The notes: generated by a model from the sequence alone, not told the origin. Positions 13,289 through 36,349 are shown, counted from the first letter of the stretch. The stretch is DNA of 64,000 nt from Treponemataceae bacterium (GCA_963667725.2 CAXXHO010000005.1:1-64000), one strand, 5' to 3'. Made by a program: numbers and translations.

Positions 13289-13291
13289 ATA

Positions 13292-14485: not shown

Positions 14486-14515
14486 ATATTGTCGCGATGG
14501 TCAGGGTGTTTTTAG

Positions 14516-14528
14516 AATCAGGTGTTTA
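14516..14528 (+). promoter_or_regulatory. Putative IHF binding site between divergent sigma-54 promoters
   Basis: AATCAGGTGTTTA matches WATCAR-N4-TTR. Confidence 0.4.
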
Positions 14529-14657
14529 AGCCTTGTTACTCCGGAACTTCGATAGGCAAAAAACTGGTTCTACGCCGATGCAAAGTGCGATTCCGCCGCT
14601 CACTGGTCCCAGAAGTTGGGAGAAACGAGCGAGGGCTACAAGAATGCGCTTTCATTT

Positions 14658-14672
14658 TGGCCCACACATTGC
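14658..14672 (+). promoter_or_regulatory. Sigma-54 promoter for the beta-barrel gene
   Basis: TGGCCCACACATTGC; nearly identical to the box at 17115. Confidence 0.7.
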
Positions 14673-14690
14673 CTGAGAGATTCGGACCCC

Positions 14691-16076: not shown

Positions 16077-16124
16077 CCTGTTGCCGGTGGCGAACCGGCT
16101 CAAATCCAGACCGTTAGCCGTGGT

Positions 16125-16751: not shown

Positions 16752-16816
16752 GACAAGATCCTTTCCAGGTGTCGTGTTCGACATCCAGGGGTACACTTTA
16801 CCCCCACGAATCTCGT

Positions 16817-16831
16817 GCATTTCGGCCTCCG
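16817..16831 (-). promoter_or_regulatory. Sigma-54 promoter for PEP-CTERM gene
   Basis: Minus strand CGGAGGCCGAAATGC = GG-N10-GC. Confidence 0.5.
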
Positions 16832-17114
16832 TTCGAAGAGAGCACGCTAAAGATAAGTACTTCAATAGGATCGCGCTCTGCGGTCTGGTGACCGTGGCGA
16901 AAACGTAGCTTCTCTATCCCGGTATTTCAGATATTCAGGCTACGAAATTGTAATCTGCCAAGCGAGTTTTTCCGAGACGGGATATGCCGGGTTGCCAAGC
17001 TGGTTCGCTCGGGACATCCCAAAGTTTAGGAAGAGGCGGACCGGGAATTGATGACGCGGTTCCGGAGGCGAGTGGGATGGTCGTAAGCTTTTGAAATTAA
17101 GCACAATTCCTGTT

Positions 17115-17129
17115 TGGACCGCACATTGC
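17115..17129 (+). promoter_or_regulatory. Sigma-54 promoter for the wzc operon
   Basis: TGGACCGCACATTGC = GG-N10-GC with TTGC. Confidence 0.7.
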
Positions 17130-17149
17130 GTACAACTTTCATTCGCAAC

Positions 17150-18760: not shown

Positions 18761-18762
18761 CT

Positions 18763-19773: not shown

Positions 19774-20708
19774 GCAAAATATTCGAGACATTGAACAGGG
19801 GTGGGGGCGAACTCGCAGATCTCATACGCCCGGTTGTCGGAGGTCCGCGCGTCGTGCCTACGAATGGCGCCGCCAAGCAGATTCCCACCGTCCCGCCAAC
19901 GCATGACGAGCGGAATGTGGTGCCGGAGAAGCCGCCCACAAGCGCCGACGGGACGCCCTGGGAGGCAATTCGAACGCTGAAACTCCGGGTCCCTGCACCC
20001 TCTCCTCTGCTGCCGTTTGAGAGCGGTCAGCCGAAGGCGAGCGAGCAGTATCGAATCCTGCGCACGAAGATCACCCAAAACCGCAGACAACCGCGGGTGA
20101 TCGTCATTTCCAGCGCGGATGCCGGTGACGGCAAGAGCGTAAACGCCATCAATACCGCGGCGGCGCTGTCGTTGAAGAGCGAAGCGAGATCGTTGCTCGT
20201 GGACGCGGACCTGCGTCGGTCAGCAACTCACGTCTTGCTGGGTCTGCCACCCGCTCCGGGCCTGTCCGATGTGCTTCAGGGGACCGCCACCTTGGAAGAG
20301 GCGCTGGTGCACACGCACGAGTTCCCAAATCTATACGTGCTGCCGGCAGGCACGGCGCCCGCGAATCCGGCGGAACTGCTGGACAGTGCCCAGTGGCCGG
20401 CCCTGTGTGCGCGGCTTCGCGCGATGTTCCGGTTTGTCGTGATCGACTCGCCACCGATGGGTGCCGTGGCGGATTACGACCTGATCCAGACGGTGTGTGA
20501 CGGAATTGCTCTGGTGGTGCGCCCGGATCACACGAACCGGGCACTATTGCGGAAAGCGTTGGAGAGTGTGCCGAAAGAGAAGTTGCTTGGCGTGATGCTG
20601 AATTGTGTCCCAGCGTGGTCGCTTTCGCATCAGTATGATGCAAGCCACTACTACCAATACCAGGACGTGAGCTCTGCTGAAGGAGCGGAAGGCCGCACTA
20701 AAGCGTAG
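19770..20708 (+). CDS. CpsD/CapB-family BY tyrosine kinase
   Basis: EQYRILRT; SADAGDGKS; LVDADLRR; VIDSPP; C-terminal Tyr cluster YDASHYYQY. Confidence 0.92.
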   Translation: MSKIFETLNRGGGELADLIRPVVGGPRVVPTNGAAKQIPTVPPTHDERNVVPEKPPTSADGTPWEAIRTLKLRVPAPSPLLPFESGQPKASEQYRILRTKITQNRRQPRVIVISSADAGDGKSVNAINTAAALSLKSEARSLLVDADLRRSATHVLLGLPPAPGLSDVLQGTATLEEALVHTHEFPNLYVLPAGTAPANPAELLDSAQWPALCARLRAMFRFVVIDSPPMGAVADYDLIQTVCDGIALVVRPDHTNRALLRKALESVPKEKLLGVMLNCVPAWSLSHQYDASHYYQYQDVSSAEGAEGRTKA

Positions 20709-20711: not shown

Positions 20712-21248
20712 CTACGGATTCGGGACCGCGGCAGTGGCCTGATTGGAGTAGGCACTCTCGTTGCTGCTGCTATCGACCGCGGTCGCGACGTAGTAGTAGG
20801 TTTGGCCGGAGGTCACGTTGTTGTCGGTGTATCCAAGCCCGGACACGGTGGAGGACGTGATCTTCGTGTACGGTCCGCCCGAAACGGTTCCGCGGTAGAC
20901 GTTATAGCCGGTCACGCCAGACGATGTGCTTGCCTGCCAGCTCAACGCTACGCTGTGCGAGGTCGTACCGGTGCCTGTGACGCAGGATCCCCCCAAGGCT
21001 GCATTCGTAACGCGCTGGATCACAATGACATTGCACGTGTTGGAGCCGTAGACGTTCGCCGTGCATGAGCTGATGCCAAGGGTCATATTCGTGGCCAGTT
21101 GGACATCGACAACATTGACCGCCCCGTCACTGTTGAGGTCGCATGCGCTGGTCTGCGCCCACGTAGCAGGAACGAACACAATAGCCGAGAGAAGACAGAG
21201 GAGACCCTTCACGTTAGAAATCTTAGGGTACCAGATGTACTGGGTCAA
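20712..21248 (-). CDS. Small secreted dockerin-like + fibronectin type III protein
   Basis: Signal peptide; CDLNSDGAVNVVDVQLATNMTLG plus degenerate second repeat; HSVALSW..GYNVYRG..YTD..TYYYVATAVD..ES.YSN. Confidence 0.8.
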   Translation of the reverse strand: MTQYIWYPKISNVKGLLCLLSAIVFVPATWAQTSACDLNSDGAVNVVDVQLATNMTLGISSCTANVYGSNTCNVIVIQRVTNAALGGSCVTGTGTTSHSVALSWQASTSSGVTGYNVYRGTVSGGPYTKITSSTVSGLGYTDNNVTSGQTYYYVATAVDSSSNESAYSNQATAAVPNP

Positions 21249-21314
21249 TACTAACGAAAGCTGGCTGGAGGATTTAACTGAAGTTAGGAACGGTGCCCGC
21301 CGTTCGTGCGCGCT

Positions 21315-22460
21315 CTACTTGATCGTGAGCGTTACGCCATACTGGCTTGTACTTGTGCCGATCTTCATCATCACGGGAACTGTATATCCAGGCGTGACTG
21401 TCATGGGGACTATGCAGTTGATCTGGAGCACACCCGCAATCAGCCCTGGGGCCGCACCAGCGTACAGTATGAGAGCGTCAGCCCCTCCGATCTGGACAGA
21501 CACTGGCAGCAATGGCTTGGGTAACGGGTCCGCAGAAAGTTGACCATCGATGCCTGGTGGGTTCGTTTGGCCAGCACCGTGTGCGAACAAACTGATGATC
21601 GAGCCACGCTCTGCGGCGTTCATTGGTGTATTGATGGTCGAATCGCAGTTGAGAATGGCGCCTGGACCGATGCCGCTGGCGTCGAGGGTGAAGATGCCAG
21701 GAGCGGCTTCGGTCACCGGCAGATCCATAGCAACTGTCTCTTCAGCTGCGGCCCTGATTTCCAGACGAGTGCTGGAAGTCCCCGTCACGCTATACGGAAC
21801 AACAGCGTTAATCTGGTTCGCATCAGCGTAGAGAATGGCGGCACGTCTCCCATCGAACTGCACCCGGAGCGCATTCTGCGCCGATGAACTGCCGATTCCG
21901 GATCCGATCAATGTAATGATTTCGCCCGGAGCGATTGCCCCAGGAAGCAGGCTTGCGGCATTCAGGACACCGGCTGGTGACAAGCGGCTCAGGACCCCGG
22001 AATCCTGTATGGAGACAAAGCCATCCGCCCCATTTAGCGGTGCGTAGTCTCCGGATGGAGTTGCACCCTGGATAGCAGACAACTGCAATGCATAGGTGTT
22101 TGCGGGTGCGGTCGCCGCCAGGTTGACGATCAGATTGGCGGCAACACCATCCGGAATCGGACTCTGGTTCAAGCCGTAGAGCACAAATCGTTTCCGGCTT
22201 GGGCCGATGTCTGCGATACTCAGCCGCCCACCCGAACCTCGCAGGATCTCACCAACGGTAGTGTTCAGGCTGATCACGGAGGAGTCATAGATCAGATCGA
22301 ACTGCAAAGCGCTAATGACGGACGCATCGGATCTAAAGGAGATGGGAAGGATAACGCTTCCACCGGGGCGTGAGGTCCCTGAGGCTACCGAGAGTGTCGC
22401 CGCTGTCACCGTCGCGGTTGAGATTAAGCCAAGAAGGATCGTCGCGAGTCCGGTTTTCAT
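21315..22460 (-). CDS. Secreted cohesin-domain protein with TIGR03437-like C-terminal domain
   Basis: LSVASGTSRPGGSVILPISF..ISALQFDLIYDSSVISL (cohesin-like); VLNAAS..IAPGEIITLIGSG..QINAVVP..YAGAAPGLIAGVLQIN. Confidence 0.8.
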   Translation of the reverse strand: MKTGLATILLGLISTATVTAATLSVASGTSRPGGSVILPISFRSDASVISALQFDLIYDSSVISLNTTVGEILRGSGGRLSIADIGPSRKRFVLYGLNQSPIPDGVAANLIVNLAATAPANTYALQLSAIQGATPSGDYAPLNGADGFVSIQDSGVLSRLSPAGVLNAASLLPGAIAPGEIITLIGSGIGSSSAQNALRVQFDGRRAAILYADANQINAVVPYSVTGTSSTRLEIRAAAEETVAMDLPVTEAAPGIFTLDASGIGPGAILNCDSTINTPMNAAERGSIISLFAHGAGQTNPPGIDGQLSADPLPKPLLPVSVQIGGADALILYAGAAPGLIAGVLQINCIVPMTVTPGYTVPVMMKIGTSTSQYGVTLTIK

Positions 22461-23362
22461 GCTCTCGTCCCTTGTGCATGTGCGCTTTGCTTACGGCACT
22501 CTGAGTTTCGAAATAGCACCATGACGGCAGCTAGAATTGCGACGGATATTAGGGAGAACAGCACTCCGCCAGAGTGGTGGAGGCTACCAAACAGGAAACT
22601 AGGGTCCACGTAAATGGCAAGACAGGTAAGGGTAACAATTCGAACCGCGTTGGTGAACATCGCTATCGGAGCTGTAAGCAGAACAAGACAGGCTCGCTTA
22701 ACGTTAGACCGCAGTGATAAGTGGGCCACCAGCAAGCCCGTGATAAATAGCGCTGTGGCTGATCGGATGGAGCTGCACTCCTTGGCAATTTCAATCGTGA
22801 AGTGAGGAACCGAGAATCTAAACCCTTCTCGAAACGCCGGCACGTGCAGGATGCCGAATAGCAGCGAAGTCATTTCCGACGATCCGGCTCTAAGAACGGA
22901 GACGATCTCGTCCAGCAGGGGCATCGGAATCGGAAGCATCAAAAGAAGCAGCACGAGCGGGAACGTCGCCGCCTTATAGGAACTTGGGCCATAGCAAAAC
23001 AAGAAAATGGCCGTCCATGCCACAATTATGCCGAACACTTGGACGAATAGGCCTGCATCCGTCGACAGACGCGCGTGGCTGGCGCCGTTACAAATGGCGA
23101 TGCCGAGTATCAGCAGCGGCAATCCAATCTTTGGGCACAGGCGGGCTTGCCGGAACACCTTCTGCCTTTTCAGATACAGCAGGCCAGCGCTGATAAACGG
23201 GATTGTCACGGCATGAGAATAGTGTTCGTCCTGAATCGCCAGAGTCACCAAGGTCCGCAGTTGGCCGTAGAACACCAGGAGCATCAGCAGAAAAGCGACT
23301 GGGAACCAGAAAGGCTGTCCCAAAGACTGTTCCGTTTTGTTGGCTTTCGGGACGGGGTGCAT
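22457..23362 (-). CDS. Exosortase (EpsH/Xrt family)
   Basis: Multi-TM protein; DEHYSH; LMLPIP; catalytic Cys/Arg/His in ECSSIRS, NAVRI, LHHSGG. Confidence 0.92.
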   Translation of the reverse strand: MHPVPKANKTEQSLGQPFWFPVAFLLMLLVFYGQLRTLVTLAIQDEHYSHAVTIPFISAGLLYLKRQKVFRQARLCPKIGLPLLILGIAICNGASHARLSTDAGLFVQVFGIIVAWTAIFLFCYGPSSYKAATFPLVLLLLMLPIPMPLLDEIVSVLRAGSSEMTSLLFGILHVPAFREGFRFSVPHFTIEIAKECSSIRSATALFITGLLVAHLSLRSNVKRACLVLLTAPIAMFTNAVRIVTLTCLAIYVDPSFLFGSLHHSGGVLFSLISVAILAAVMVLFRNSECRKQSAHAQGTRA

Positions 23363-23377
23363 TGAGGAGGACGGTCC

Positions 23378-24499
23378 TTACGCGAAGTGCCTGTAGAAGA
23401 TGCTCCCCACCGCAGAAAACACAGGATCGGGCAAGCAGGCTACGACGGATCCAGCTGCTCTTGGAAGCCAGCCCATATGAAGTGCGTTGAACGCGTGCTT
23501 GTTCTGTCTCGCAAATCGGGTGTAGGTCAAGGATGAGCGGGCGGCGCCCCAGCGATCCTTGAAAGTGATCAGGCCAGCGTTGTCGCAATCGGAGCGACCA
23601 AGGTCGAACTCGCTCAGACCGTCGCGCCGAGCATCCTGGATGGCGGTCCAGAACAGGAGCTGGGTGCCGCCGAGATTGCTGTAGCGCGCGTCGGAGCAGC
23701 CGTATTTATAGACAAGCGTGTCTTTGTGGCGTAGCGTCAGTATGGCTGCCAGCGGCTGTTGATCCCTTAATGCGACCCTGATCTCGAGCGCATCAGCGAG
23801 GCAATTAATCAGATTGCGGAACCAACTCCGGGGTTGCGGCGGGAGTTGGTGTCGGCGACGCGTCATAACGACCAAGTTCCAGAATGCGTCCAGGAGATCC
23901 CGGGAGCGGCCGGCTTTGCAGACAATGCCTTCCCGTTCGGCGCGCCGGATCTTTCGTTGTGTGCAGTCCTTATGACAGTTTCGCAGCAGCGTCGCGACAT
24001 CGGGCCGCAGATCTAAACGATGGAAGCAGTACTGCTGGGTGGATACGTTGAGGTCCAACGTAGCGTCCAAAGGGCGCTCGGCTCGAATTTCCACATAGTG
24101 CAGATTGTCCCGGCGGAGTTCTTGATCGAGTGAGGCGAGGAATGCTCTACCTTCGGTCGCATCACGGAGCAGTGGCGCACAGTGATCCGAGAACGGGAGT
24201 GAGACCAAGCGATCCCCCGTGATTGAGCTCCTCACAAGGCACAGGACCATCGCGTCCTCAAGCGGGGTGCCAGGGGCCGATGTGGTGTACGCGATGGGCT
24301 CAAATCCATACGTCTGCTGGAGCGCGGTGAGCCACTCCCGGGTATGAAAAATGGAAGACAGGGGGTGCCTCGTAACGAGACCGGTCCATCGGGGATCTTG
24401 AAGCGGGCAGATTTTATAGATCACCGATGGACCCTCGACGGAGGATAAACCATTCTTGTTTTGGGGAACCAGCCGACTGGGACACACAAAATTCGGCAT
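23378..24499 (-). CDS. FemAB-like GNAT-family protein
   Basis: IFHTREWL; LVSLPFSDHC; RKIRRAEREG; YKYGCSD; FDLGRSD..GLITFKDRWGA. Confidence 0.85.
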   Translation of the reverse strand: MPNFVCPSRLVPQNKNGLSSVEGPSVIYKICPLQDPRWTGLVTRHPLSSIFHTREWLTALQQTYGFEPIAYTTSAPGTPLEDAMVLCLVRSSITGDRLVSLPFSDHCAPLLRDATEGRAFLASLDQELRRDNLHYVEIRAERPLDATLDLNVSTQQYCFHRLDLRPDVATLLRNCHKDCTQRKIRRAEREGIVCKAGRSRDLLDAFWNLVVMTRRRHQLPPQPRSWFRNLINCLADALEIRVALRDQQPLAAILTLRHKDTLVYKYGCSDARYSNLGGTQLLFWTAIQDARRDGLSEFDLGRSDCDNAGLITFKDRWGAARSSLTYTRFARQNKHAFNALHMGWLPRAAGSVVACLPDPVFSAVGSIFYRHFA

Positions 24500-24546
24500 C
24501 CGACGATTTGGCTAATCCCGAGCGACAGACTCTCCGCACTGCCACG

Positions 24547-24561
24547 GCAATCGAAGGTCCG
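24547..24561 (-). promoter_or_regulatory. Sigma-54 promoter for the GNAT-exosortase-cohesin-dockerin unit
   Basis: Minus strand CGGACCTTCGATTGC = GG-N10-GC with TTGC. Confidence 0.55.
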
Positions 24562-24675
24562 AAGAGGGTGCGAGGGGCGAGATTCACTGCTATAGCACCC
24601 CACGGTATGAGTGTGCTTTGTTCCGCTTTGCACCACATCACGTGAGCGTGTAAGCCGCCGCTATCTGGTATCCTG

Positions 24676-27600
24676 CTACCACTCATTGCGTGAGTTGGAA
24701 CCGGTCATTGGCGTTTGCAGACCCGCCAAATCAATTGCTTCTTTTATCTTTTCTGCCAGGACCTGCACGTAGGGATCTACGAATATACCGCCTGGCGCAG
24801 TGGGCAGTTCTTCTATCTTCAGTGACCCAGTAACAACACCGTCCCATCCCATCTGGGGATCGCGCATATATGAGTAGTGTCTGTTTGGCTTGAAGATAGT
24901 TACCGGCCCCGCGTAAGGGGTTGGCACGTACCCAAAAGCAAGCTTATCATTACGATCTTCGAGCCAGACGTCAGAAATCGGAATCCCAGTGCGGCCAAGC
25001 CTCAGAAAGTTCGAGACTCTAGCCGCTGTTTTTTGGGATTCTCTCAAGATCGCAACTTTGAGCTTTTTCCCTAGATAATTTAGTTGGTGTTTCATGCTGA
25101 GTCGGATGAGGTTTACTAGGTGAAAAGTGACCTTTTCAGTAGCGTTCAAGAGCTGCTCGCGAAGCGAGCGGTGCAAGCCGGCGCCGCGAAAATTGTAAGT
25201 ATCGATCAGAGCGAGGAACGCCACTTCCTCCCCCTCCTTTCGAAGAATCTGTGCCATAGCATAGGCGATTAGGCCACCCATGCAGAACCCGCCAAGACAA
25301 TATGGTCCCTTGGGTTGGACCTGCCGAATTTCCTCCAGGTAGCAGGCGGCCATTTCCTGGATGGACCGTGGAATCTTCCTGCTCGGACCCATTCGGCGGG
25401 CCTGCAGCGCGTAGAAAGGGTAGTCGGGTGCCATTTGGCGGGCCAAGTCGCCGAAGATCAAGACGTTGCCTCCAGCCCCATGCACGCAGAAAAACGGCTT
25501 CTTGGTACCCTGTTCTTGCATCGGTACAAGGGATGACCAGGGTCGGGAATCTCCGGTTCGGAGCAGAGCGGACAGTTCTTCTACTGTAGGTGCACGAAGC
25601 AATACAGAGATGGGGAGATTTCTTCCAAAACGCTTCTTTAGTTCCATGAACAGCCGAGCCGCCGTTAGGGAATTGCCTCCGAGATCGAAGAAGTTGTCCC
25701 GCAATCCAATATCGTTCACGCCGAGTATCTTTGTCCATGTATCGCGCAACTGCTCCTCCAGCGTGTCCCCATATTTCGTGGTAGTTCGTTCATCGCAAAT
25801 AGGCGCCGGTAATGCCTCCACGTTTTCTGCCGAGGGGATGCTGAAGAACAGTGTTTCGGGGGCGGGAACATTCTCCGATTCCGTCAAACCTGCCAGTTCG
25901 AGCGCTGCTCGCCCAGGCCCAGCCGCCATAGCTACCAGAATCTTTTCGAGCGCCGCCAGCCAGTTTTCCACTGTCGCGTGCTTCAGCAGTCCCGTATCGT
26001 AGTGGCAGTGCAGTTCCAGGCCATCCTCGTCCTCAATGGCGTTCAAGTACCATTCGAACGACTCACTGGTTTTCGCATTGGCATAGTAGTCCACGGAAAA
26101 GCCGTGTTGCGGCAACTCGTGCCGCCGGAATTTCTTCACGTTGGTCAACCCGGCCGGGATTGGAGAGAGGTGTTGCGCAGGGGTGGAAGGTCGCAGGGTT
26201 TCGAGCAGACTCACTAGGGTGAACGAGGATTCGTCACAGGCTTCGCCGAGTTCTTTTTGTACGCGCGTCAGGTACTCATTCACACTCTCGTTGCTTTGTA
26301 AATCCACCAAGAACGGCAGCAGGCCGACGCAATGACCGACTAACTGAGGTTTACCTACAGCTGGCTGGTCGGCCGTGGGGAGAGCGATCACAAACCTCCG
26401 CTGCTTCGAGACCTGTGCGAGCATGATGGACAGGGCCCCCAGAATAGCGGCGAAGAAGCTGCAGCCTTGTTTTGCCGCCATCTCGCGGGTCTTTTCCACG
26501 ATTGGGGCGGCAATTCTGCGATCTAGGCGTCTAGCGCGGCTAACGCGCCGCGCCCCCCGGGGGAAATCGGCGGGCAATACTAGTGGCGGCAGCCCGCCGG
26601 CGAATTTATTCGCCCAGAACCTTCTTGAGTCCACAAACTTCACGGAATGCTCGCGCCGCACCACCTCGGCCGCGTAACTGGCGAAGCTCGATACTGGGCC
26701 CAAATTGGACGGCACGCCGGATATTTCTTCCGAATAGAACGCACACCAGTCATGGATCAAGACGTCCAGTGACCAGCCATCGCAAATCACGTGATGGCCG
26801 GTGATGATTACAGCCGCAGAATCGCGTCCCAATACGATAATCTGACTGCGGAAAAGCGGACCGCTGGGCAACGCAAATGGGCGTGCCATCTCTTCCGTCG
26901 TCAGTTCGCGAAGCCTGACTTGGCGTTCCGAGTCCCGGGTAAGGCCGGAAAGATCGATAACCGGAACGCGCAACTCCATCTCGGGGGCCACTCGCATCAC
27001 CGACCCGGTTTCATCGAAAGACGCACGTAAGGCGTCATGCCGTTCAACTAGTCGCTGCAGAGACCTCGTGAGTTGTGGAACTGAAACACAGCCCTTCACA
27101 AACAGCGTGATGGACTCGTTGTAGGAAGCGGACAGGTTATCAGAGAGCCGCGACGAGAAAAAGATGCCCCGTTGCGGCACCGTGGACGGCGTCGAAACCA
27201 CAATAGCAGTACCCGAAGCAAGGACCGACTCAGGAATGACGGCGGCTGATCCCGCGGGTGTAGTCGGTTCGTTCGTATCGGGCTGTCGCGTTCTCTGCAA
27301 CTCCATCTGGCGCAAATTCCGCTCGATCACAACGTGCGCGATTTCCTGAAGTGATGTGGGTGGAGCGGATGGGCCATCGGCCATCGAATTGTTCAGATGT
27401 TCCGCGACCATTTGCACGTTCGGGAACTGATTCATGAGCTCGGTGAAGCTCATCTTGATCCCGAACTCCTTACGGATGGCAAAGGCGACCTGGGCCAAAG
27501 AGAGAGAGTCGAAACCTTGCTCCAAGAACGTTGCCGAGGTGCTGATTTGCGCGCGCTCGTGTCCCGATATGGGGACAAGAATATCGAGCAGGGCTGCCGT

Positions 27601-30600
27601 CACGCGATCTCTCCGCGTTGCTACAGTGGGGCCCGCGGGTTCTCCAGTTACAGTAGTTCCTACGATGACGTTCCCCAGGTCAGGTGTGTCTGACACGCCC
27701 TCACTCTCCCGCGGCGTTTCCGCGATGACTACTGGATCGACCCAGTACCGCTGGCGCTCGAACGGATAATTGGGCAAGGGAATGCGTCGGCGGTCTTCAT
27801 GGACGTAGAACCCGTCCCAGTCGATAGAGACGCCGTTTAGCCATAGTGAACCCAGAGCAAACAGCATTGAAGCCCATTCTGCGTTGCCTTCGCACGTATC
27901 CGACAACGTTGGAACCGCTACGCACGGCCGGTCTGAGCCGAAGTGTTGCCGGGCGAGCGAACACATGGTGGCTCGAGGCCCGCATTCTAGGAAAACGTCA
28001 TGGCCCATTTCCTTCAGCGCCAGCACGGCCTTAGAGAACTCGACGGTCGCCCGGGCATGATGGGCCCAGTAAGATGGGCTCATCGCCTCCTCCTCGGTGA
28101 TAAGTCGTCCCGTCACGGTGGACACAAACGGCTGCGTAGGCAGCCGCAACTTCGCCTTTGCGATCTCGATTCGCAGCGGCTCCACAACCGGATCCATCAT
28201 TGCCGAATGGAATGCGTGCGAGGTATACAGATGCTGGCAAGCGATATTTCTGGCCTCGAGTCGCGCGCGCAAGGCCTCAACGTCCGCCATAGGCCCGGAA
28301 ACCACGCAGAGAGACGGCGCGTTGTTAGAAGCGACCTGGATGCTATCCGGCAGTACTTGCCTGATCTTTTGTACACTGGTACGCACCGCCAGCATCGCTC
28401 CACTCGGAAGCACCCGCATCAAGCGTCCGCGCTGGGCGATGATCCGGAGACCGTCTTCCAATTCCCATACGCCCGCTAGCGTGGCCGCCACGAATTCGCC
28501 GATGCTGTGACCTGCCATCATGGCGGGCCGAATTCCGAAGCTTTGCCACAGACGCGCGAGCGCATATTCGACTACGAAAATGGCGGGCTGAGTATAGAAC
28601 GTGTCCTGCAGCGAAATCTGCGCGGCCCTTTCGTCCCCGCTTTTGGGATACAGGAACTCGCGGAGATCCACTCCCAGATGGACTTTCAAGATGTCACAGC
28701 AAGTATCCACAACAGCGCGGAACAGGGGTTCCTCTTGATATAGGTTCTGCCCCATATTGACGTATTGTGTACCCTGCCCCCCGAACAGGAATACGACTGC
28801 CGGATCCCGTTTTTCGCAACGCTTGTGGCCGCTCCGTAGTGGGTTCGGCTGCCGCAGAAGCTTTGCGGCTTCCTTCGGATCTCCGGCGACAACAAAGCGA
28901 CGTTCCGCCATCTGCTTGCGCCCGGTTTGCAGCGTGAATGCGACGTCCGCGAGATCCTGCGAGCGGACGGAATCCAGGTGAGAAGCAAACAACTGAATAT
29001 ATGCATCGAGGACCGTGGGCGTTCTTCCGGAAATCGGAAGTAGTTGCAAAGGCCGCGACTTATTCCCTGGCTGCCAGACTGGCGCCTCTTCCAAAATCAC
29101 GTGAACATTCGTTCCGCCAAAGCCGAACGAACTCACCGCGGTCCGCCGAGGCGTCTCCCCACGACGGTACGGTATCAAATGATTCGCAACTTTGAACGGA
29201 CTGTTCTCGAAATCGATTCGAGGGTTCGGCGTCTTGTAGTGTAGAGTGGCAGGAATCTCTTCCCGATGCAGAACCATCGCGGCTTTGATGAGGCCTGCTA
29301 CTCCCGCGGCATTCGTGGGATGCCCGATATTGCCCTTGATGGATCCTATAAAACAGAACTGCTTCTTTTGCGTCTTTCTTTCGAAAACCTTGCGAAGCGC
29401 CTCGATCTCAATCGGATCCCCGACAGGCGTCCCCGTGCCATGCGCTTCGATGTACCCGATTGTTTCGACATCGACATTCGCACGTGCCTGCGCGATTGCA
29501 ATCGCTTCCGCCTGTCCTTCCACGCTCGGCGCGAGAAATGAAGCCGGCCGTGCGCCGTTATTGTTCTTTCCCGATCCTTTCACCACAGCATAAATCGTGT
29601 CACCGTCCGCGATGGCCTCCGATAGTCGCTTCAGCACCACCAGACCTGCGCCGTCGCAGAACATCGTCCCCGTGGCACCCGCATCAAAGGGCCGGCAGTG
29701 TCCGTCCTTCGCGAACGTGCCACCTTCTGTGTAAGGGAAACCGCTCCTTTGTGGTACTGTGATGTCTATGCCGCCCGCAAGCGCTATGTCGCATTCGTAG
29801 TCCAGCAAAGCCCGATAAGCCTGATCCACCGCCAGTAAGGTTGTAGAGCACGCGGTGTTGAGACTGACAGCCGGACCATGTAGGTCCAGAAAGTACGCCG
29901 CTCGCAGAGCAATGTAATCTTTCTGGTTCCCATATTCCACCGCCAGCTTGCCCGCCCTAGCTATCAGGTCCGGATGTGTAAGCAAGTTCGTCGTATAATA
30001 GTGATTGTCTCCGATGCCCGCGTAGACTCCAATGAGACCTTTGTAGCGTCCTGGATCATAACCCGCGTTCTCCAACGCGTTGTACGCCAACTCCAGGAAG
30101 ACTCGCTGTTGCGGGTCCATGACCTTCGCTTCCAGTGAGCTCACACCAAAAAAACCGGCATCAAACAGCTCCGCTCCCTGTATCAGCCCCCGTGCCCGGA
30201 TATAATCTGGGTCTGTTCGCAGGTTTTCGTCAAGCCCGGGTCCCAATTCCTCGGGACCAAAGAACGAGATGGACTCCACCTCACCGCACAGGTTTCTCCA
30301 CAATTGGTCGAGGTTGTCCGCCCCTGGGAATCTCCCTACCATCCCAATAATCGCAACCTCTTCCTGCGTCACCTTGTTCCCTGAATGCCCTCTCCGCACT
30401 CGCTCTGCTCTCTGTTCCGCATCTGCCACGAACGACGAGTCCGTCTCCTCGCTGTCCAAAAATCGACAGAGTTGCGCGATGGTCGGGTATTGGAACACCT
30501 TCACTAGAGGGAGTTCTCTCCCAAATCTGGAGTGATATTCGCTTGCCATGTGAACGGCCGCCAGCGAGTTGCCTCCGACGTCGAAAAAACTGTCGTCAAT

Positions 30601-32235
30601 CCCGATCTGGTCGAGGTGCAGCAGTTCACACCATAGCGCTGCCAATCGTCTTTCCAGCGCTGTTTGCGGCGTGACGTACTCACATGCCCGCGGCGGCCTC
30701 GTCCTTGCCGGAGCCGGAAGAGCCTTGCGATCTAGTTTTGCGTTTGGCGTCCTCGGAAATTCTTTCATCCAAACGTACGCTGACGGCACCATGTACTCTG
30801 GCAACGTCGTCTTCAACTTCCGCGATAGGACAAGCGAATTCAAGTCCGGCTGTCCCGTGTAATAACCTACGAGCCTTTTCTCGCCAGGCACGTCTTCCCG
30901 TACGGCCACCACGGCTTGGCAGACGCCATCGATATTGCCCATCGCACTCTCGATTTCCCCGAGTTCGATGCGAAAGCCGTTTAGCTTTACCTGGTGGTCG
31001 AGGCGTCCCAAAAACTCCAGCGACCCATCTGTCCGGTAGCGCACTTCGTCGCCCGTCCGGTACAGCCGAGCACCTTCTACTGCCCGGAAGGTATCAGGAA
31101 CAAATTTCTCTGCCGTCAGCTCCGCGCGCTTCAAGTAACCCCGCGCAAGTCCGTCCCCCCCGATCAGAAGCTCGCCCCGTTGCCCTGCCTCCACCGGCTG
31201 CAAGTTCTCATCCACCACGTAAAATTGCGTATTTGCGATCGGCGGTCCTAGCGATATTCTCTCCGGGGAAGTAATCTTCTCCGTCGAGGACCATATGGTA
31301 GTCTCCGTCGGCCCGTACATATTCCACAATTCGTGACAGCGCGGCAGCAGCTGTTCCACCAAGTCCAACGTTAGGGCCTCGCCGCCGCACAAGATCTTCA
31401 GGTCCTCCTTCCCTGACCAGCCTGTCTCCACCAGCATCCGCCATGTTGTTGGAGTTGCCTGCATCACCGTGATGCCATGCCGTTCCAGGAGCCGCACCAG
31501 TTCCTTTGGGTCCACACTCTCTTCACGCGTCGCTATGACCGTGTGCGCGCCGGCCGTGAGTGGCAACAGCAATTCCAAAATCGAAATATCGAAGGAAATT
31601 GTGGTCACCGCCAACAGTACATCTCGCGTGCGTATTCCCGGCCTCTCCGCCATCGAAAACAGGAAATTCGTCAGCGCCTGTCGCGGGATCATCACTCCTT
31701 TGGGCTTTCCCGTCGAACCTGACGTGTAGATCATGTACGCCAAGTCATCCGGGGTGTTAACGTGCACGCGATCGTCCGCCGGATCCCTCGCCAACGCTTC
31801 CTCGATCTCGTCGAGCACAATCACCCGGGCCTCTGTCTCCGGCAAACTCCCCTTCTTGGCAGCTTGTGTCAGAACTACCGGGACTGCCGCGTCCTCCAGC
31901 ATGAAGGCCAGTCGTTCCTGCGGGAACTTCGGATCTAACGGCAGGTAAACTCCACCGGCTTTCAAGATGGCAAGGAAACAGACCACCATCTCGATGGATC
32001 GGTCTACGTATACTCCGACGACGCGACCGGTAGCCGTACCCTGTTTTTGGAGGAACTGCGCCAGTCGGTTCGCCTTTTCGTCCAATTCACGATAGTTCAG
32101 CCGTTTAGCACCCATCGTCACCGCGGGACTATCAGGAGTCTTCGCGACCTGTTCCTCGATGAGTTCGTGAGGACCCCGGCCAAGAGGATAGTCGCGCTGC
32201 GTCTTATTCCATGGCTGTAGGCAAGGGGAATTCAT
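24676..32235 (-). CDS. Hybrid NRPS/type I PKS: A-T-KS-AT-T-C-T-TE (2519 aa)
   Basis: A: YTSGSTGKPKG, YGPTE, YRTGD, PNAKLDR; T: GGNSL; KS: TACSTT, EAHGTGT, NIGH; AT: GHSIG, HAFHS; T: GFDSL; C: HHVICDG; T: GGNSL; TE-like: GFCMG. Confidence 0.95.
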   Translation of the reverse strand: MNSPCLQPWNKTQRDYPLGRGPHELIEEQVAKTPDSPAVTMGAKRLNYRELDEKANRLAQFLQKQGTATGRVVGVYVDRSIEMVVCFLAILKAGGVYLPLDPKFPQERLAFMLEDAAVPVVLTQAAKKGSLPETEARVIVLDEIEEALARDPADDRVHVNTPDDLAYMIYTSGSTGKPKGVMIPRQALTNFLFSMAERPGIRTRDVLLAVTTISFDISILELLLPLTAGAHTVIATREESVDPKELVRLLERHGITVMQATPTTWRMLVETGWSGKEDLKILCGGEALTLDLVEQLLPRCHELWNMYGPTETTIWSSTEKITSPERISLGPPIANTQFYVVDENLQPVEAGQRGELLIGGDGLARGYLKRAELTAEKFVPDTFRAVEGARLYRTGDEVRYRTDGSLEFLGRLDHQVKLNGFRIELGEIESAMGNIDGVCQAVVAVREDVPGEKRLVGYYTGQPDLNSLVLSRKLKTTLPEYMVPSAYVWMKEFPRTPNAKLDRKALPAPARTRPPRACEYVTPQTALERRLAALWCELLHLDQIGIDDSFFDVGGNSLAAVHMASEYHSRFGRELPLVKVFQYPTIAQLCRFLDSEETDSSFVADAEQRAERVRRGHSGNKVTQEEVAIIGMVGRFPGADNLDQLWRNLCGEVESISFFGPEELGPGLDENLRTDPDYIRARGLIQGAELFDAGFFGVSSLEAKVMDPQQRVFLELAYNALENAGYDPGRYKGLIGVYAGIGDNHYYTTNLLTHPDLIARAGKLAVEYGNQKDYIALRAAYFLDLHGPAVSLNTACSTTLLAVDQAYRALLDYECDIALAGGIDITVPQRSGFPYTEGGTFAKDGHCRPFDAGATGTMFCDGAGLVVLKRLSEAIADGDTIYAVVKGSGKNNNGARPASFLAPSVEGQAEAIAIAQARANVDVETIGYIEAHGTGTPVGDPIEIEALRKVFERKTQKKQFCFIGSIKGNIGHPTNAAGVAGLIKAAMVLHREEIPATLHYKTPNPRIDFENSPFKVANHLIPYRRGETPRRTAVSSFGFGGTNVHVILEEAPVWQPGNKSRPLQLLPISGRTPTVLDAYIQLFASHLDSVRSQDLADVAFTLQTGRKQMAERRFVVAGDPKEAAKLLRQPNPLRSGHKRCEKRDPAVVFLFGGQGTQYVNMGQNLYQEEPLFRAVVDTCCDILKVHLGVDLREFLYPKSGDERAAQISLQDTFYTQPAIFVVEYALARLWQSFGIRPAMMAGHSIGEFVAATLAGVWELEDGLRIIAQRGRLMRVLPSGAMLAVRTSVQKIRQVLPDSIQVASNNAPSLCVVSGPMADVEALRARLEARNIACQHLYTSHAFHSAMMDPVVEPLRIEIAKAKLRLPTQPFVSTVTGRLITEEEAMSPSYWAHHARATVEFSKAVLALKEMGHDVFLECGPRATMCSLARQHFGSDRPCVAVPTLSDTCEGNAEWASMLFALGSLWLNGVSIDWDGFYVHEDRRRIPLPNYPFERQRYWVDPVVIAETPRESEGVSDTPDLGNVIVGTTVTGEPAGPTVATRRDRVTAALLDILVPISGHERAQISTSATFLEQGFDSLSLAQVAFAIRKEFGIKMSFTELMNQFPNVQMVAEHLNNSMADGPSAPPTSLQEIAHVVIERNLRQMELQRTRQPDTNEPTTPAGSAAVIPESVLASGTAIVVSTPSTVPQRGIFFSSRLSDNLSASYNESITLFVKGCVSVPQLTRSLQRLVERHDALRASFDETGSVMRVAPEMELRVPVIDLSGLTRDSERQVRLRELTTEEMARPFALPSGPLFRSQIIVLGRDSAAVIITGHHVICDGWSLDVLIHDWCAFYSEEISGVPSNLGPVSSFASYAAEVVRREHSVKFVDSRRFWANKFAGGLPPLVLPADFPRGARRVSRARRLDRRIAAPIVEKTREMAAKQGCSFFAAILGALSIMLAQVSKQRRFVIALPTADQPAVGKPQLVGHCVGLLPFLVDLQSNESVNEYLTRVQKELGEACDESSFTLVSLLETLRPSTPAQHLSPIPAGLTNVKKFRRHELPQHGFSVDYYANAKTSESFEWYLNAIEDEDGLELHCHYDTGLLKHATVENWLAALEKILVAMAAGPGRAALELAGLTESENVPAPETLFFSIPSAENVEALPAPICDERTTTKYGDTLEEQLRDTWTKILGVNDIGLRDNFFDLGGNSLTAARLFMELKKRFGRNLPISVLLRAPTVEELSALLRTGDSRPWSSLVPMQEQGTKKPFFCVHGAGGNVLIFGDLARQMAPDYPFYALQARRMGPSRKIPRSIQEMAACYLEEIRQVQPKGPYCLGGFCMGGLIAYAMAQILRKEGEEVAFLALIDTYNFRGAGLHRSLREQLLNATEKVTFHLVNLIRLSMKHQLNYLGKKLKVAILRESQKTAARVSNFLRLGRTGIPISDVWLEDRNDKLAFGYVPTPYAGPVTIFKPNRHYSYMRDPQMGWDGVVTGSLKIEELPTAPGGIFVDPYVQVLAEKIKEAIDLAGLQTPMTGSNSRNEW

Positions 32236-32329
32236 TTGATCGCCTCTCGAGCTTGCAGATCCCTACAAGGTACCTTATGCCACCCTTCGCCGGATCGGCC
32301 TCTCTCGAGAGATCCGGTACACGCTTGTC

Positions 32330-34465
32330 TCAACTCAGTGGCTGACGCCCATCCTCGAATTTCTGATTGATGAGCGAAGTCACCAAGTGTAGGTAGTCCT
32401 TCTTCTTCCTCTCCCAGCTATAGCGCTCCACGTACTCTAGCCCTTTCGCAACCATGGACTCTCGCGCACTCCGGTTCTCGATTACCTCCAACATCGCCAG
32501 TGCCATCGCCTCGTCATCCCCCGATGTAAAGAAACGAACGACCGAGTTATCAAAATACATTGAGTCAATCTTAGTTCGTGAGAGTACTACCGGGACCGCC
32601 TGAGACATGAATTCCATGATCTTTGTGCTGTAAGCTTCATTCCCGAACGAATTGGCCCGCTTCGGGACCACTCCCAGATCAGCATTCGCTATCACTTCCG
32701 GGATTATGTCCAACGCGACTGGCCCGAAGAACTTCACTCTTTCGGCCAAGCCTAACTGATTGGCCAACTCGGCCAACTCAGTCCTGGCGTTTCCCCCGCC
32801 TCCGCCCCCGTATAAGTGCAACTCGGCTCCGGGTACGCGATTCTTCAAACGAGCCAACGCCCTAATAGCAATATCCAACCCCTGATGCCATTGGAACGTG
32901 CCCGGGAAGAGGATAACCACCTTGCCGTCAGTTCTCGTTCGGGGCCGTCGATAAAAGATGGCTGGGTCGACATGATTGAGAAAGACCGACGCTTTCTCTT
33001 TGGGAACAGACCGCGAAGTCAGTGTTTCGTACCAGAGATCATTAGAGACGATGACGTGATCCACAAATGAGGCTGAGAGGCTCTCTAACCGTTTGAGTAA
33101 ACGAACATATCGAGGCCTCGCTCCGCCAAATTTGCTCGCGAATAATTCGGGCACTATATCATGGATGTCCAGGATCAGTTTCGCATCAGTCTGTTTTGGA
33201 TACCATGCGGCAAACACGAGAAAGTCGGGTACGTTGTGGACGTGAATTAGGTCATATCGCACTTCGTGGTGACGACGAGTCAAAAAGACCGAAGATGCCA
33301 ACAAAAAGCGCAGTACGCGCCATGCGTATGTCCATTTCCCCTGCTCGTCGCGTTCGCGGTGCTGAATTCGGTATATGGAAACGCCGTTAATTATTTCCGT
33401 CTTGAGTGTGTTTCCCCCGCTACTAAGTGCCACAACATCGACTTGATCACCACTTTTGGCGAGTGCCTCCGCGTATCGTCGAACCCGGTTATCACTTTCA
33501 TAGCCCGTATACGCCAGCATACAGACCTTTCTCCGCGTATTGCGTGAAGCGAGTGGCACACGGGCGGAATAGAAGCGGGCGACATCGCGCGGGCATGCCG
33601 TCCAGATGGCTTGACTGTGGTTTTCTTGCACATACCGCAGAAGATCTTCATACCGAGACGCCGGGTACTCATCTCTGGCTCGTGTCGCCTCATTAAAGGA
33701 CATGTAGTCTGGGTGAGTATTGACCAAGGCCATGCCGCCACGAGCTGCTATCCAATCGAGCTTGCGTTTCCAAGTATCGATATCGTGCTCGCGCAACACG
33801 CCAAACAAGGTAAAGTCTTGTGGGAGGGTATAGGGCAGTTCTACATAGCCATCGCCGTCGCGGCCCGGCACCCAGAAAGGGAAAATCGTCCCTACGCCAT
33901 CCGGTTCAGGCTCGAAGGGGTCGGTGTCAAAGGTAGATGCATCATACTCGACGCCGATCTGGTGTAGCCACGCCAGCCTGTGCTGCATCAGCGGCGAACG
34001 AAAACCGGAAGCATTCCAGCACTCAAGGTATTTCTTGATTCGAACCGCATCTGAAGCAAATCGGTCTTTGGAAGAGTAAAGCTTTCCATCATGTTGCAGA
34101 CCATGTACTCCAACCTCGAAACCAGCTCGATCTAGCGTGTCTCGCAAGGCGTCTGGGACTCGATATTCTCCTTCGGGCACGAAATTGAATGATGAGCGGA
34201 AGCCGTACTTCAGGTCCAGATTCATTAGCGCTTCGACACGCGCCAAGCCCTTGCTTCCCTCAACATCATGAGTGAGGACGAATGCAAAACGCTTGCCTTC
34301 AGGCCAGCCCGGCCAGCCTGGGGGAGTGAAGCCCGCCCTCTCATCGATTGGCCATACGCCGGCATGGCTGGCCCGCCTTCTGGCGGCCCACCATCGCCGC
34401 GCCGTCAAACACAACCATCGCGGTAGAAACGGCTTGACGTTGTAGTACAAAGTCGTGAAGATCAT
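32330..34465 (-). CDS. Polysaccharide deacetylase-like domain fused to GT4 glycosyltransferase
   Basis: N-terminal LTHDVE, EVGVHGLQH, GFRSP, ELPYTL, HPDY; C-terminal DNRVRRYAEAL, IHVHNVPDF, STKIMEFMSQAVPVV. Confidence 0.88.
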   Translation of the reverse strand: MIFTTLYYNVKPFLPRWLCLTARRWWAARRRASHAGVWPIDERAGFTPPGWPGWPEGKRFAFVLTHDVEGSKGLARVEALMNLDLKYGFRSSFNFVPEGEYRVPDALRDTLDRAGFEVGVHGLQHDGKLYSSKDRFASDAVRIKKYLECWNASGFRSPLMQHRLAWLHQIGVEYDASTFDTDPFEPEPDGVGTIFPFWVPGRDGDGYVELPYTLPQDFTLFGVLREHDIDTWKRKLDWIAARGGMALVNTHPDYMSFNEATRARDEYPASRYEDLLRYVQENHSQAIWTACPRDVARFYSARVPLASRNTRRKVCMLAYTGYESDNRVRRYAEALAKSGDQVDVVALSSGGNTLKTEIINGVSIYRIQHRERDEQGKWTYAWRVLRFLLASSVFLTRRHHEVRYDLIHVHNVPDFLVFAAWYPKQTDAKLILDIHDIVPELFASKFGGARPRYVRLLKRLESLSASFVDHVIVSNDLWYETLTSRSVPKEKASVFLNHVDPAIFYRRPRTRTDGKVVILFPGTFQWHQGLDIAIRALARLKNRVPGAELHLYGGGGGGNARTELAELANQLGLAERVKFFGPVALDIIPEVIANADLGVVPKRANSFGNEAYSTKIMEFMSQAVPVVLSRTKIDSMYFDNSVVRFFTSGDDEAMALAMLEVIENRSARESMVAKGLEYVERYSWERKKKDYLHLVTSLINQKFEDGRQPLS

Positions 34466-34879: not shown

Positions 34880-34883
34880 CTAG

Positions 34884-36345
34884 TACTACTGTGTTATAAA
34901 CGGAACAAATTAGTGTAGAATTGTTTGGTGGGCACACCGACCGCGCCAGGCTCACAGCAGAAGCGCTTTGCGGCATACATGGATGGCCTGGCCGAAGCCG
35001 CAGGGCACGCCGATCGCAGCATCCCGCTGAAGAACTACTGCACCGGACTGCTCTTGCCGGGCGAACGTAAAAGCGTCGAGCCGATGGCGGCCCGCCTGGC
35101 TCCCCACAATGTGCGCCGGATGCATCAGTGCTTGCACCACCTGGTGGCGACCGCGCCCTGGAATGATGAGGTCGTGCTGGATCGAGCGTTGGACACCGTA
35201 TTGCCGGCGATGCTGGCCCGCGGTCCGTTGATCGCCTGGGTGGTGGACGATACCGGCTTCCCCAAAAAAGGCAGGTATTCGGTCGGCGTGGCCCGTCAGT
35301 ATTGTGGTCAACTCGGCAAGCAGGACAACTGCCGTGTCGCCGTCAGCGTTTCGGTAACTACGGGAACCTCCAGCATGCCGGTCGCCTTCGGTCTGTATCT
35401 GCCGGAAGCGTGGGCTAACGACAGTCAGCGACGGGAGGAAGCGGGCGTGCCGGCGGAAGTTGAGTTCCGCACCAAACCGGAAATCGCGCTGTCGCAAATC
35501 CGTCGGGCGCGCGAGCGGGGCATCCCCGAAGGGGTGGTGCTGGCCGATGCCGGATACGGAACCGACACGGGTTTTCGCACGGAACTGACGAAGCTGGAAT
35601 TGCGCTACGTAGTGGGAATCCAAAGCACGGCAACCGTCTGGGAACCGGGCAAACAGCCCGAACCGGCGCCACCCTACGCCGGAAAGGGGCGACCGCCACG
35701 ACTGTTACAGCGAGACGCGAAGCATCTGCCGGTTGCGGTGGGGCAACTCGCGCTGTCCTTGCCAGCCAAATCCTGGAAGACGGTGACCTGGCGAGCCGGA
35801 GTAAAACAGAAACTGCGTTCCCGGTTTGCCGCCGTCCGCGTTCGCCCGGCCCATCGCGACTACTGGCGCAGTGAGCCGCATGCCGAGGAATGGTTGCTGA
35901 TCGAATGGCCCAAAAACGAGGCGGAACCGACCAAGTACTGGCTTTCTACCTTGCCTGGGGAACTCTCCATGACCGAACTGGTCCGGATGGCCAAACATCG
36001 CTGGATCATCGAGCGCGACTATGAAGAACTGAAGCAGGAGTTAGGGTTGGGGCACTTCGAGGGGCGCGGCTGGCGAGGTTTTCACCATCACGCCACACTC
36101 TGCCTGGCCGCGTATGGGTTCCTGGTGGCCGAGCGGAACCGTTTTTTCCCCTCAGCGCGTGTCGGCCATCTTGGACTACCAGCCCTGGACTTGCCGCCGG
36201 ACTTCCGGCCGCGCGGCTCGCCTTCGACCCGAGCGGCATAACCCGACCTCAATCGCCACCTTACGCATCCGGATCGCCCGCTATCTCCTGACGCAGTTCC
36301 CCTCCTGCCCTTTCTGCGGATGCCTACGTTTATAACACAGTAGTG
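34884..36345 (+). mobile_element. IS701-family insertion sequence
   Basis: Terminal inverted repeats TACTACTGTGTTATAAACG / CGTTTATAACACAGTAGTG (18/19 match); CTAG on both sides (34880-83, 36346-49). Confidence 0.93.
34925..36241 (+). CDS. IS701-family DDE transposase
   Basis: GERKSVEPMA; VDDTGFPKKG..SVGVARQYCGQLGKQDNC; LADAGYG; RWIIERDYEELKQELGL. Confidence 0.95.
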   Translation: MVGTPTAPGSQQKRFAAYMDGLAEAAGHADRSIPLKNYCTGLLLPGERKSVEPMAARLAPHNVRRMHQCLHHLVATAPWNDEVVLDRALDTVLPAMLARGPLIAWVVDDTGFPKKGRYSVGVARQYCGQLGKQDNCRVAVSVSVTTGTSSMPVAFGLYLPEAWANDSQRREEAGVPAEVEFRTKPEIALSQIRRARERGIPEGVVLADAGYGTDTGFRTELTKLELRYVVGIQSTATVWEPGKQPEPAPPYAGKGRPPRLLQRDAKHLPVAVGQLALSLPAKSWKTVTWRAGVKQKLRSRFAAVRVRPAHRDYWRSEPHAEEWLLIEWPKNEAEPTKYWLSTLPGELSMTELVRMAKHRWIIERDYEELKQELGLGHFEGRGWRGFHHHATLCLAAYGFLVAERNRFFPSARVGHLGLPALDLPPDFRPRGSPSTRAA

Positions 36346-36349
36346 CTAG

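Follow-up and report, generated by a model that had tools for sequence, protein, structure and literature searches.

The window analysed here is the whole 64,000-nucleotide stretch deposited for Treponemataceae bacterium (GCA_963667725.2 CAXXHO010000005.1:1-64000), and its minus strand encodes a 2519-residue hybrid in which a nonribosomal peptide synthetase (NRPS) is combined with a polyketide synthase (PKS). The protein is a real, conserved and uncharacterised variant of its class, with a release domain from which the canonical catalytic triad is missing. The best reading, to which a probability of roughly 0.47 is given, is that the synthetase is an accessory line passing a glycine-ketide acyl group, probably extended by a second glycine, through the cysteine of its thioesterase (TE)-like terminal domain to the amine of a sugar.

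The original prediction described a single protein with adenylation (A), carrier (T), ketosynthase (KS), acyltransferase (AT), condensation (C) and TE domains in the order A-T-KS-AT-T-C-T-TE, which was confirmed by Pfam over an intact reading frame. Relatives were searched for with residues 1540-2519. Of the 7987 proteins scored, 875 reached E 1e-60; 120 of them were listed, and 112 of these (2350-2700 aa, the query included) were aligned and are the basis of all counts out of 112 given here.

24676..32235, minus strand: hybrid NRPS-PKS, A-T-KS-AT-T-C-T-TE, 2519 aa, domain order from Pfam
30736..32157, minus strand: A domain, pocket DILQLGMIWK taken by motif anchoring
30445..30663, minus strand: first carrier, T1, Ser557 (Ser in 112/112)
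29086..30363, minus strand: KS domain, Cys796, His932 and His972 (all three in 112/112)
27901..28794, minus strand: AT domain, GHSIG and HAFH (both in 112/112)
27388..27618, minus strand: second carrier, T2, Ser1577 (Ser in 112/112), with no aminotransferase between T2 and C
25885..27186, minus strand: C domain, HHVICDG (HHxxCDGW in the family, motif in 112/112)
25546..25773, minus strand: third carrier, T3, Ser2189 (Ser in 112/112), with no A domain of its own
24721..25497, minus strand: TE-fold terminal domain, Cys2318 (25282-25284), Asp2345, lid His2372 (25120-25122) and Pro2481 (24793-24795)

The colinear A, T, KS, AT and C domains with intact active sites are those of a hybrid cis-AT NRPS-PKS. 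The pocket residues, the HAFH motif and the lack of a ketoreductase (KR), all part of the original prediction, were reproduced by motif anchoring and Pfam, and the Pfam scan of the 2519 residues likewise returned no dehydratase (DH) or aminotransferase. Among the 112 aligned proteins the pocket was DILQLGMIWK in 50 and DILQFGMIWK in 39, the remaining 23 having a close variant. DILQLG[LMV]IWK is taken here to be the glycine code and HAFH to mark an AT of the malonyl type; the A domain is predicted from its pocket to activate glycine. It clustered with glycine-code A domains (SH-aLRT, the Shimodaira-Hasegawa-like approximate likelihood ratio test, 97) in a quick tree which, since A domains group by substrate, does not prove its origin. 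No second A domain was found in the synthetase or in the 189-kb block of DNA to which the window belongs. A phosphopantetheinyl transferase (PPTase) gene was not found in that block either, which says little because most of the genome of the true organism is not in hand.

The original prediction treated the TE as ordinary, which proved incorrect. The nucleophile elbow reads GFCMG, and in alignment Pro2481 falls on the catalytic histidine of the NocB TE. Across the family the nucleophile was Cys in 110 of 112 members, and the site of the triad histidine was occupied by Pro (90), Arg (9), Ser (6), Ala (3) or His (2). The predicted model is a confident TE fold (predicted local distance difference test, pLDDT, 88.5) of the alpha/beta-hydrolase type with a GxS/CxG elbow. 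It places His2372 on the first lid helix, and PDB entry 4zxh (AB3403) ranks fourth among its structure matches. The canonical type I triad, Ser/Cys-Asp-His with the His after strand 8, is not present. Searched by profile, 1.84 billion representatives yielded a list of 150 proteins and 189 domain rows; 24 of the rows were incomplete and were dropped, which left 165. Among these listed matches, 104 of the 165 complete TE domains combined the cysteine with proline at the histidine site (Cys+Pro). All 104 kept Asp or Glu at the acid site, and the lid motif FHxxN carried its His in 100 of 104, compared to 7 of the 40 domains retaining the triad His; the position of lid His2372 was His in 99 of 112 family members. 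The window TE bears the marks of this clade (Cys elbow, Pro at the His site and lid FHxxN) and is not of the SulM/ObiF type, its acid lying at the strand-6 position (Asp/Glu in 104 of 104) and its triad His being absent. Because the acid site is kept and the lid His covaries with the His-to-Pro change, the results indicate that the domain was rebuilt by selection and has not decayed. The lid His is a candidate replacement base for the lost triad His.

The Cys-type NRPS TEs AB3403 (4zxh), SulM, ObiF1 and MacB share with the window domain the alpha/beta-hydrolase TE fold and a GxCxG elbow. In the accessible portions of the reports all four have Cys-His-Asp triads (PMC13288461, PMC11298585), whereas the window domain has Pro in place of His and the conserved lid FHxxN His. 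The same portions describe ring closure with little hydrolysis by MacB (PMC13288461) and by SulM and ObiF (PMC11298585). A literature search without subscription journals or supplements found no published account of a His-less TE or of an exopolysaccharide (EPS)-linked NRPS-PKS of this kind. The single plasmid match, a PKS from Nostoc, has an ordinary Ser/His TE and is not of the Cys+Pro type. Apart from these domains, NRPS proteins with internal Cys/His TE domains and further modules after them were observed (P0122, P0131-P0133, P0139, P0142).

Gene neighbourhoods were compared for 84 close loci, whose neighbours were clustered and representatives scanned with Pfam (66 and 121 proteins, a subset of the neighbours). 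The commonest neighbours were a carbohydrate esterase family 4 (CE4) deacetylase (32 loci), PPTase (23), a priming glycosyltransferase (GT; 16), Gfo/Idh/MocA (15), hexapeptide-DegT (14) and GT2 (14), followed by rml genes (8-9 each), UDP-sugar dehydrogenase (7) and exosortase (3). In 27 of the 32 loci with a CE4 gene, this gene is the direct neighbour of the synthetase and has the same orientation. Polysaccharide genes were counted against a fixed panel of 28 marker proteins, eight of them from the loci themselves. Grouping at 95% C-domain identity gave 63 groups, and 19 with less than 6 kb of flank were dropped to leave 44 with flanks of ~7 kb on each side; the controls were 40 evenly spaced 14-kb stretches of two carrier genomes. 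A marker was present in 24 of 44 non-redundant loci compared to 5 of 40 controls, and at least two markers in 19 of 44 compared to 2 of 40, an enrichment that is clear but overstated because eight markers derive from the loci, two genomes supplied all the controls and related loci do not count as independent. With grouping at 80%, 17 of 31 groups had a marker and 13 of 31 at least two.

Matches to the TE profile were present in 47 of 401 Acidobacteriaceae genomes and in 8 of 301 genomes of a Bacteroidota class. The 36 top-scoring TE stretches included 29 of the Cys+Pro type, 21 of these 29 with a marker, and among the Cys+Pro stretches were other architectures: stand-alone T-TE, A-T-TE, C-A-T-TE and T-AMT-C-T-TE (AMT, aminotransferase). 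The CE4 gene lay 1-37 kb off on the same contig in 10 of the 26 best TE matches, and 11 of 29 long distant loci of the aminotransferase type carry polysaccharide markers. The markers beside loci found with the TE indicate that the end domain, more than the particular line, tracks with polysaccharide loci. DegT might still be a source of the amine on the polysaccharide, but in 14-15 of 84 loci it keeps company with Gfo/Idh/MocA and a hexapeptide acetyltransferase, a set that normally acetylates its own amine (WbpB/E/D logic). As a separate observation, a cassette recurs at the edge of EPS loci (L238/L289, L254-L265, L110, L136) in which a Cys+Pro T-TE accompanies an ordinary Ser/His T-TE, a class-IV aminotransferase, a thiamine pyrophosphate enzyme, an AMP ligase and an aldehyde dehydrogenase.

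Several results, in addition to the overstated enrichment, weigh against delivery to a sugar of the polysaccharide. No marker was found within ~7 kb on either side in 20 of the 44 non-redundant loci, and with grouping at 70% only 2 of 6 groups were marker-positive (also 2 of 6 for at least two markers). Variants ended by a GNAT domain (three non-redundant) were all marker-free. The CE4/EPS locus lies on another contig in genomes G064 and G787 and ~50 kb away in G691. The CE4 gene was found in 76 of 401 genomes compared to 4 of 401 for the synthetase, none of the 12 closest CE4 orthologues was in a carrier genome, and CE4 was rejected as an obligate partner since it often occurs where the synthetase does not. 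Of the 21 marker-positive TE stretches, six depend on one exosortase or one GT2 match, and the TE stretches are up to 20 kb long compared to 14 kb for the controls. A-less C-T-TE ends with a Thr starter (L166, L274/L275) imply that glycine on T3 cannot be general. On chemical grounds a free 4-amino-3-oxo thioester would be expected to close to pyrrolidine-2,4-dione, and the synthetase has no N-capping domain. The acyl substituent on polysaccharide of the original prediction is partly supported by the marker counts, 20 of the 44 loci being marker-free; homologues mostly outside EPS loci, the outcome that it had named as adverse, were not found, although nearly half are without a marker.

In the proposed working of the line, the A domain would load glycine onto T1, as the pocket code suggests, and KS and AT would add malonyl to give 4-amino-3-oxobutanoyl-T2, unreduced in keeping with the domain content. 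This intermediate had been predicted originally; the product may be larger, because the C domain and the last carrier are intact. The C domain would join the T2 chain to glycine on T3, charged by the same A domain or by one in trans; loading of A-less modules by upstream A domains is documented in the available part of one report (10.1101/560987). The chain would then move to Cys2318, where with no triad His the thioester would be poorly hydrolysed and would await an outside nucleophile, the lid His possibly serving as base. The acceptor would most likely be a sugar de-N-acetylated by the adjacent CE4 enzyme, on a lipid-linked repeat unit or a nucleotide sugar, and the His-less Cys TE is the best candidate for the transfer step. 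The line would be an optional accessory, as the CE4 locus also exists without it or with other carrier systems ending in the same domain type: among 15 synthetase-free CE4 loci three had other carrier-protein genes, one of them a stand-alone Cys+Pro T-TE. The exosortase would be a bystander for which the model has no need. Deacetylation followed by acylation is the logic of NodB/NodA and of teicoplanin, where the acceptors are small molecules and the acyltransferase is a separate enzyme and not a TE-fold domain. In streptothricin biosynthesis (ORF18), as far as the accessible text goes, a carrier-bound acyl group is likewise moved to an amino sugar, the acceptor being the small molecule streptothrisamine and the transfer being made by a C domain (PMC11546977). 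A wider generalisation is more doubtful: the Cys/Pro/lid-His domain could be a TE-fold glycan acyltransferase of a new class, serving several phyla as a shared delivery head for interchangeable NRPS, PKS and acyl-ligase lines that would decorate Wzx/Wzy polysaccharides with amino-acid-ketides after de-N-acetylation by CE4. The window protein would then be the most compact version, in which a single A domain feeds two carriers.

The strongest alternative, improbable but deserving serious weight, is that the line makes a small diffusible metabolite, either pyrrolidine-2,4-dione or a Gly-ketide-Gly chain cyclised on the TE cysteine to 3-glycyl tetramic acid, maybe glycosylated and exported via the polysaccharide machinery in the way that has been proposed for carenaemin. 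It is favoured by the 20 loci without polysaccharide markers and by the ring-closing Cys TEs cited above, which in the accessible text nevertheless retain the triad His that supports turnover. A further precedent is the pyrrolinone of althiomycin, for which the part of the report available proposes a route from glycine and malonyl followed by TE cyclisation, in N-acylated form (PMC3445576). The terminal modules of that line (A(Gly)-T, KS-AT-T-TE) share with the window protein a glycine extended by malonyl and left unreduced; as described there, upstream modules acylate the glycine amine and the ketide is followed directly by the TE, whereas in the window protein glycine is the starter and C-T-TE follows the ketide. 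Carenaemin of Collimonas arenae Cal35, here likened by description only and from part of the report, is diffusible yet needs a PKS-NRPS tied functionally to a Wzx/Wzy-type locus, and its authors propose a peptide attached to the repeat unit (PMC8313283). It differs in being the product of a multi-module line with KR and epimerisation (E) domains at two separate loci, and is an antifungal of unsolved structure. No transporter, resistance or tailoring gene recurs among the neighbours of the 84 loci, and the Pfam scan of the run at 20712-34465 agrees with the original prediction in showing no efflux, resistance or redox gene. It also speaks against this alternative that the Cys+Pro domain is found at the end of lines that make no ketide for cyclisation (stand-alone T-TE).

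It is less probable again that the transfer is made by the C domain itself, which would move 4-amino-3-oxobutanoyl from T2 onto a free amino sugar in the manner of streptothricin or only relay it to T3, with no second glycine and with T3-TE as a relay or editing arm. The lack of a second A domain in the synthetase and in the 189-kb block is consistent with this mechanism, as are the documented transfer to streptothrisamine and the recurrence of A-less C-T-TE ends both after complete modules and with a Thr starter (L267, L268, L274, L275, L166), and also as stand-alone proteins. The C domain, however, has a canonical HHxxxDG motif and belongs to a clade mostly followed by A-T, and strong selection acts on the Ser of T3 and the Cys of the TE. 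Since a glycan acceptor is also implied, this alternative differs from transfer by the TE cysteine in mechanism only.

The remaining features of the window are as follows.

32330..34465, minus strand: CE4-like deacetylase (THDVE, HGLQHDG, HPDY) fused to GT4, 711 aa
23378..24499, minus strand: FemAB-like GNAT (PF13480, PF02388)
22457..23362, minus strand: exosortase (TIGR02602 above cut-off, XrtA below)
21315..22460, minus strand: secreted protein with cohesin-like, TIG and Soli_cterm regions (cohesin 24.5 bits, cut-off 24.1)
20712..21248, minus strand: small secreted protein, dockerin-like motif by eye, fn3 E 0.004
34880..36349, plus strand: insertion sequence (IS) with DDE_5 transposase, 23-nt inverted repeats and CTAG ends
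36345..37641, minus strand: IS with DUF772/DDE transposase and 21-nt inverted repeats
37626..46220: giant secreted surface protein, 2864 aa, last repeat (34581-34880) severed by the two IS
46326..63998, minus strand: upstream, co-oriented Wzx/Wzy-type run, gene content by family scans
5965..20708, plus strand: converging export arm with wza, PrsT-like TPR, VanZ-like, chain-length determinant, ExeA-like ATPase and tyrosine kinase genes
13292..14056 and 16125..16865, minus strand: two PEP-CTERM-tailed genes, no Pfam or NCBIfam match at the thresholds used

Between 34465 and 20712 every gene lies on the minus strand, successive genes being ~95, 177, 16, -4 and 67 nt apart, which bears out the co-oriented run from the deacetylase-GT4 gene to GNAT, exosortase and cohesin described earlier. 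Scans for promoters and terminators gave counts close to chance (8 versus an expected 6.7, and 22 versus 15.5). The deacetylase domain had no Pfam match at E 0.01; profile matches to 3rxz (E 1.9e-6) and 3qbu (E 5e-4), language-model neighbours with PF01522 and the D-x-D/E, H-x3-H and HPD motifs support a putative CE4/NodB-type deacetylase, as in the fusion originally proposed. For the cohesin-dockerin pair, the cohesin match is marginal, in a protein that ends in a Soli_cterm domain, and the small secreted protein gave fn3 but no dockerin match in Pfam at E 0.01. The Wzx/Wzy-type run contains wzx, GT4, an epimerase, an amidotransferase, four GT2, a wzy-like gene, a methyltransferase, a deacetylase, DegT, a hexapeptide transferase and Gfo/Idh/MocA, with a priming GT just past the end of the window. 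Polysaccharide genes lie on both sides of the synthetase run, but two tandem IS at CTAG in the last repeat of the giant surface protein part the synthetase cassette from the upstream wzx, GT and DegT genes; the DegT gene is ~29 kb away, and the second IS has 3-6x the local depth. The giant protein itself combines three DUF2341 domains with a GH43-like propeller; a long internal stretch is duplicated almost exactly, and the C-terminal repeats are Ig-like.

The window shares with Exosortase A/PEP-CTERM EPS loci an exosortase, a PrsT-like TPR protein (above cut-off), a FemAB-like GNAT, deacetylases, an amidotransferase, an ExeA-like ATPase and PEP-CTERM tails. It differs in that most XrtA-specific models are below cut-off (TIGR03109 at 125 of 208 bits, the FemAB-like TIGR03019 at 112 of 260 bits), and NRPS-PKS is not among the XrtA-associated families matched. 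The original prediction also offered the exosortase anchor and the GNAT as routes, and neither was supported. It is highly improbable that the product modifies the lipid anchor of the exosortase or the PEP-CTERM proteins, or that the FemAB-like GNAT is the transferase: despite their direct co-orientation in the window, the occurrence of an exosortase near 7 of 29 Cys+Pro TE loci and family members ending in a GNAT domain, exosortase and window GNAT homologues were each in 3 of 84 synthetase loci, the window GNAT accompanies CE4 in 10 of the 15 loci lacking the synthetase, the fused GNAT is not detectably similar to it (BLASTP E 0.4), and the PEP-CTERM-tailed proteins of the window are the exosortase's own substrates. 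In those family members (L016, L018, L149, L153) a GNAT-like domain replaces the TE, and L016 has a free-standing paralogue upstream that is 54% identical.

The family is mostly Terriglobia, and close loci from named genomes were all Acidobacteriota (12/12). Carriers are rare: there were 4 among 401 genomes of Acidobacteriaceae and 2 among 401 of Terriglobia, the centre genome counted in and at most 4 candidates scored per genome. The 112 relatives are 41-51% identical in the C-terminal region, keep the reduced layout throughout and have a T2-to-C spacing of 194-306 aa; no class-III aminotransferase (PF00202) was found in the synthetase or the 120 listed relatives. Distant loci (Pseudomonadota, Bacteroidota, Verrucomicrobiota) encode A-T-KS-AT-T plus C-A-T, with a class-III aminotransferase before the C domain in 6 of 6 lines tested, a Val-, Pro- or Thr-type first A code and often a Gly-type second. 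Hybrid modules of the form A-T-KS-AT-T-AMT-C-A-T are of the MycA/McyE type. The post-aminotransferase modules and their EPS-linked relatives (L022-L068, L284-L287) share the A-T-KS-AT-T front with ~50% KS identity, whereas the window protein is a single polypeptide with no aminotransferase or second A domain and a Gly-type starter where theirs is Val-, Pro- or Thr-type. The C domain of the window family nests with 24 of 25 post-aminotransferase C domains (support 0.955; FastTree, 82 rows, midpoint root), a clade in which A-T follows C in most loci. By these comparisons the family is likely derived from aminotransferase-containing two-module lines via loss of the aminotransferase and the second A domain. 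Intermediates L274 and L275 keep the aminotransferase and lack the second A domain, L166 has the window layout with a Thr-type starter, close member L131 has an extra C-A(Gly) and with it a second Gly-type A domain, and aminotransferase-type Cys+Pro lines keeping the last-module A domain (L284-L287, L072) have the Gly code there.

Other endings were also observed among the aminotransferase-type lines. Those of L284-L286 close with A(Gly)-T-TE(Cys+Pro), after which comes a membrane glycosyltransferase (PMT_2, GT-C type) and, in two, an ATP-grasp gene. In L053, L057, L026 and similar loci the line stops at a C domain, and two alpha/beta-hydrolase genes stand in the place of a TE; L057 shares a contig with close family member L015. 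There is very little to recommend a decaying remnant of an aminotransferase-type line with a dead TE, since the loss of aminotransferase, second A domain and triad His, the upstream IS elements and the missing PPTase are set against a layout and active sites kept in 112 relatives, the covariation of the His-to-Pro change with the lid His, a PPTase gene adjoining 23 of 84 loci and a genome mostly not in hand.

The window belongs to a mis-joined foreign segment (C5:1-189287) of the source assembly, likely from Terriglobia. Tetranucleotide composition of the first 180 kb of the contig, C5, gave a second component of -3.3 to -4.1 compared to 0.39 ± 0.46 on contig C3 of that assembly. The block carries second copies of serS, mreB, mrdA and purM that are 29-48% identical to those on C3 (no second copy of ligA or gatE was found), and its SerS shares 54% identity with the SerS of a Terriglobia genome compared to 35-36% for three kin of the source genome. 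At C5:189,287 the depth changes from ~8 to ~45, and contigs on both sides continue with other sequence. One 19.8-kb short-read contig spans 20001-36375 with zero differences (runs X1-X3, one sample, maybe the source sample). The mis-join explains the near-blank search for the synthetase among kin of the source genome, in which none of the 36 genomes of the family matched and 2 of the 24 others from the order gave matches of only 21-36% identity. The end of contig C4 has a tetranucleotide signature like that of the foreign block. The block also holds a second polysaccharide cluster (L095-L096, C5 ~103-126 kb) with amidotransferase, NeuD-like, LegC-like and nucleoside diphosphate-sugar dehydrogenase genes, and GatE and GatD above NCBIfam cut-offs (L096:7493-10839), the block being bacterial.

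As the line is laid out in one protein, the question can be tested in vitro. Should the metabolite alternative prove true, the synthetase would still offer a minimal way to a molecule of the tetramate type, and its release domain would be unusual. If the acyl group is instead delivered to a sugar amine, orphan NRPS-PKS clusters counted as antibiotic candidates would make cell-surface substituents, which would explain why such clusters yield no extractable product. The finding would add a TE-fold enzyme whose active site has been rebuilt, together with an amino-keto acyl group that is unusual on exopolysaccharide, and with them a route of cell-surface decoration not described before.

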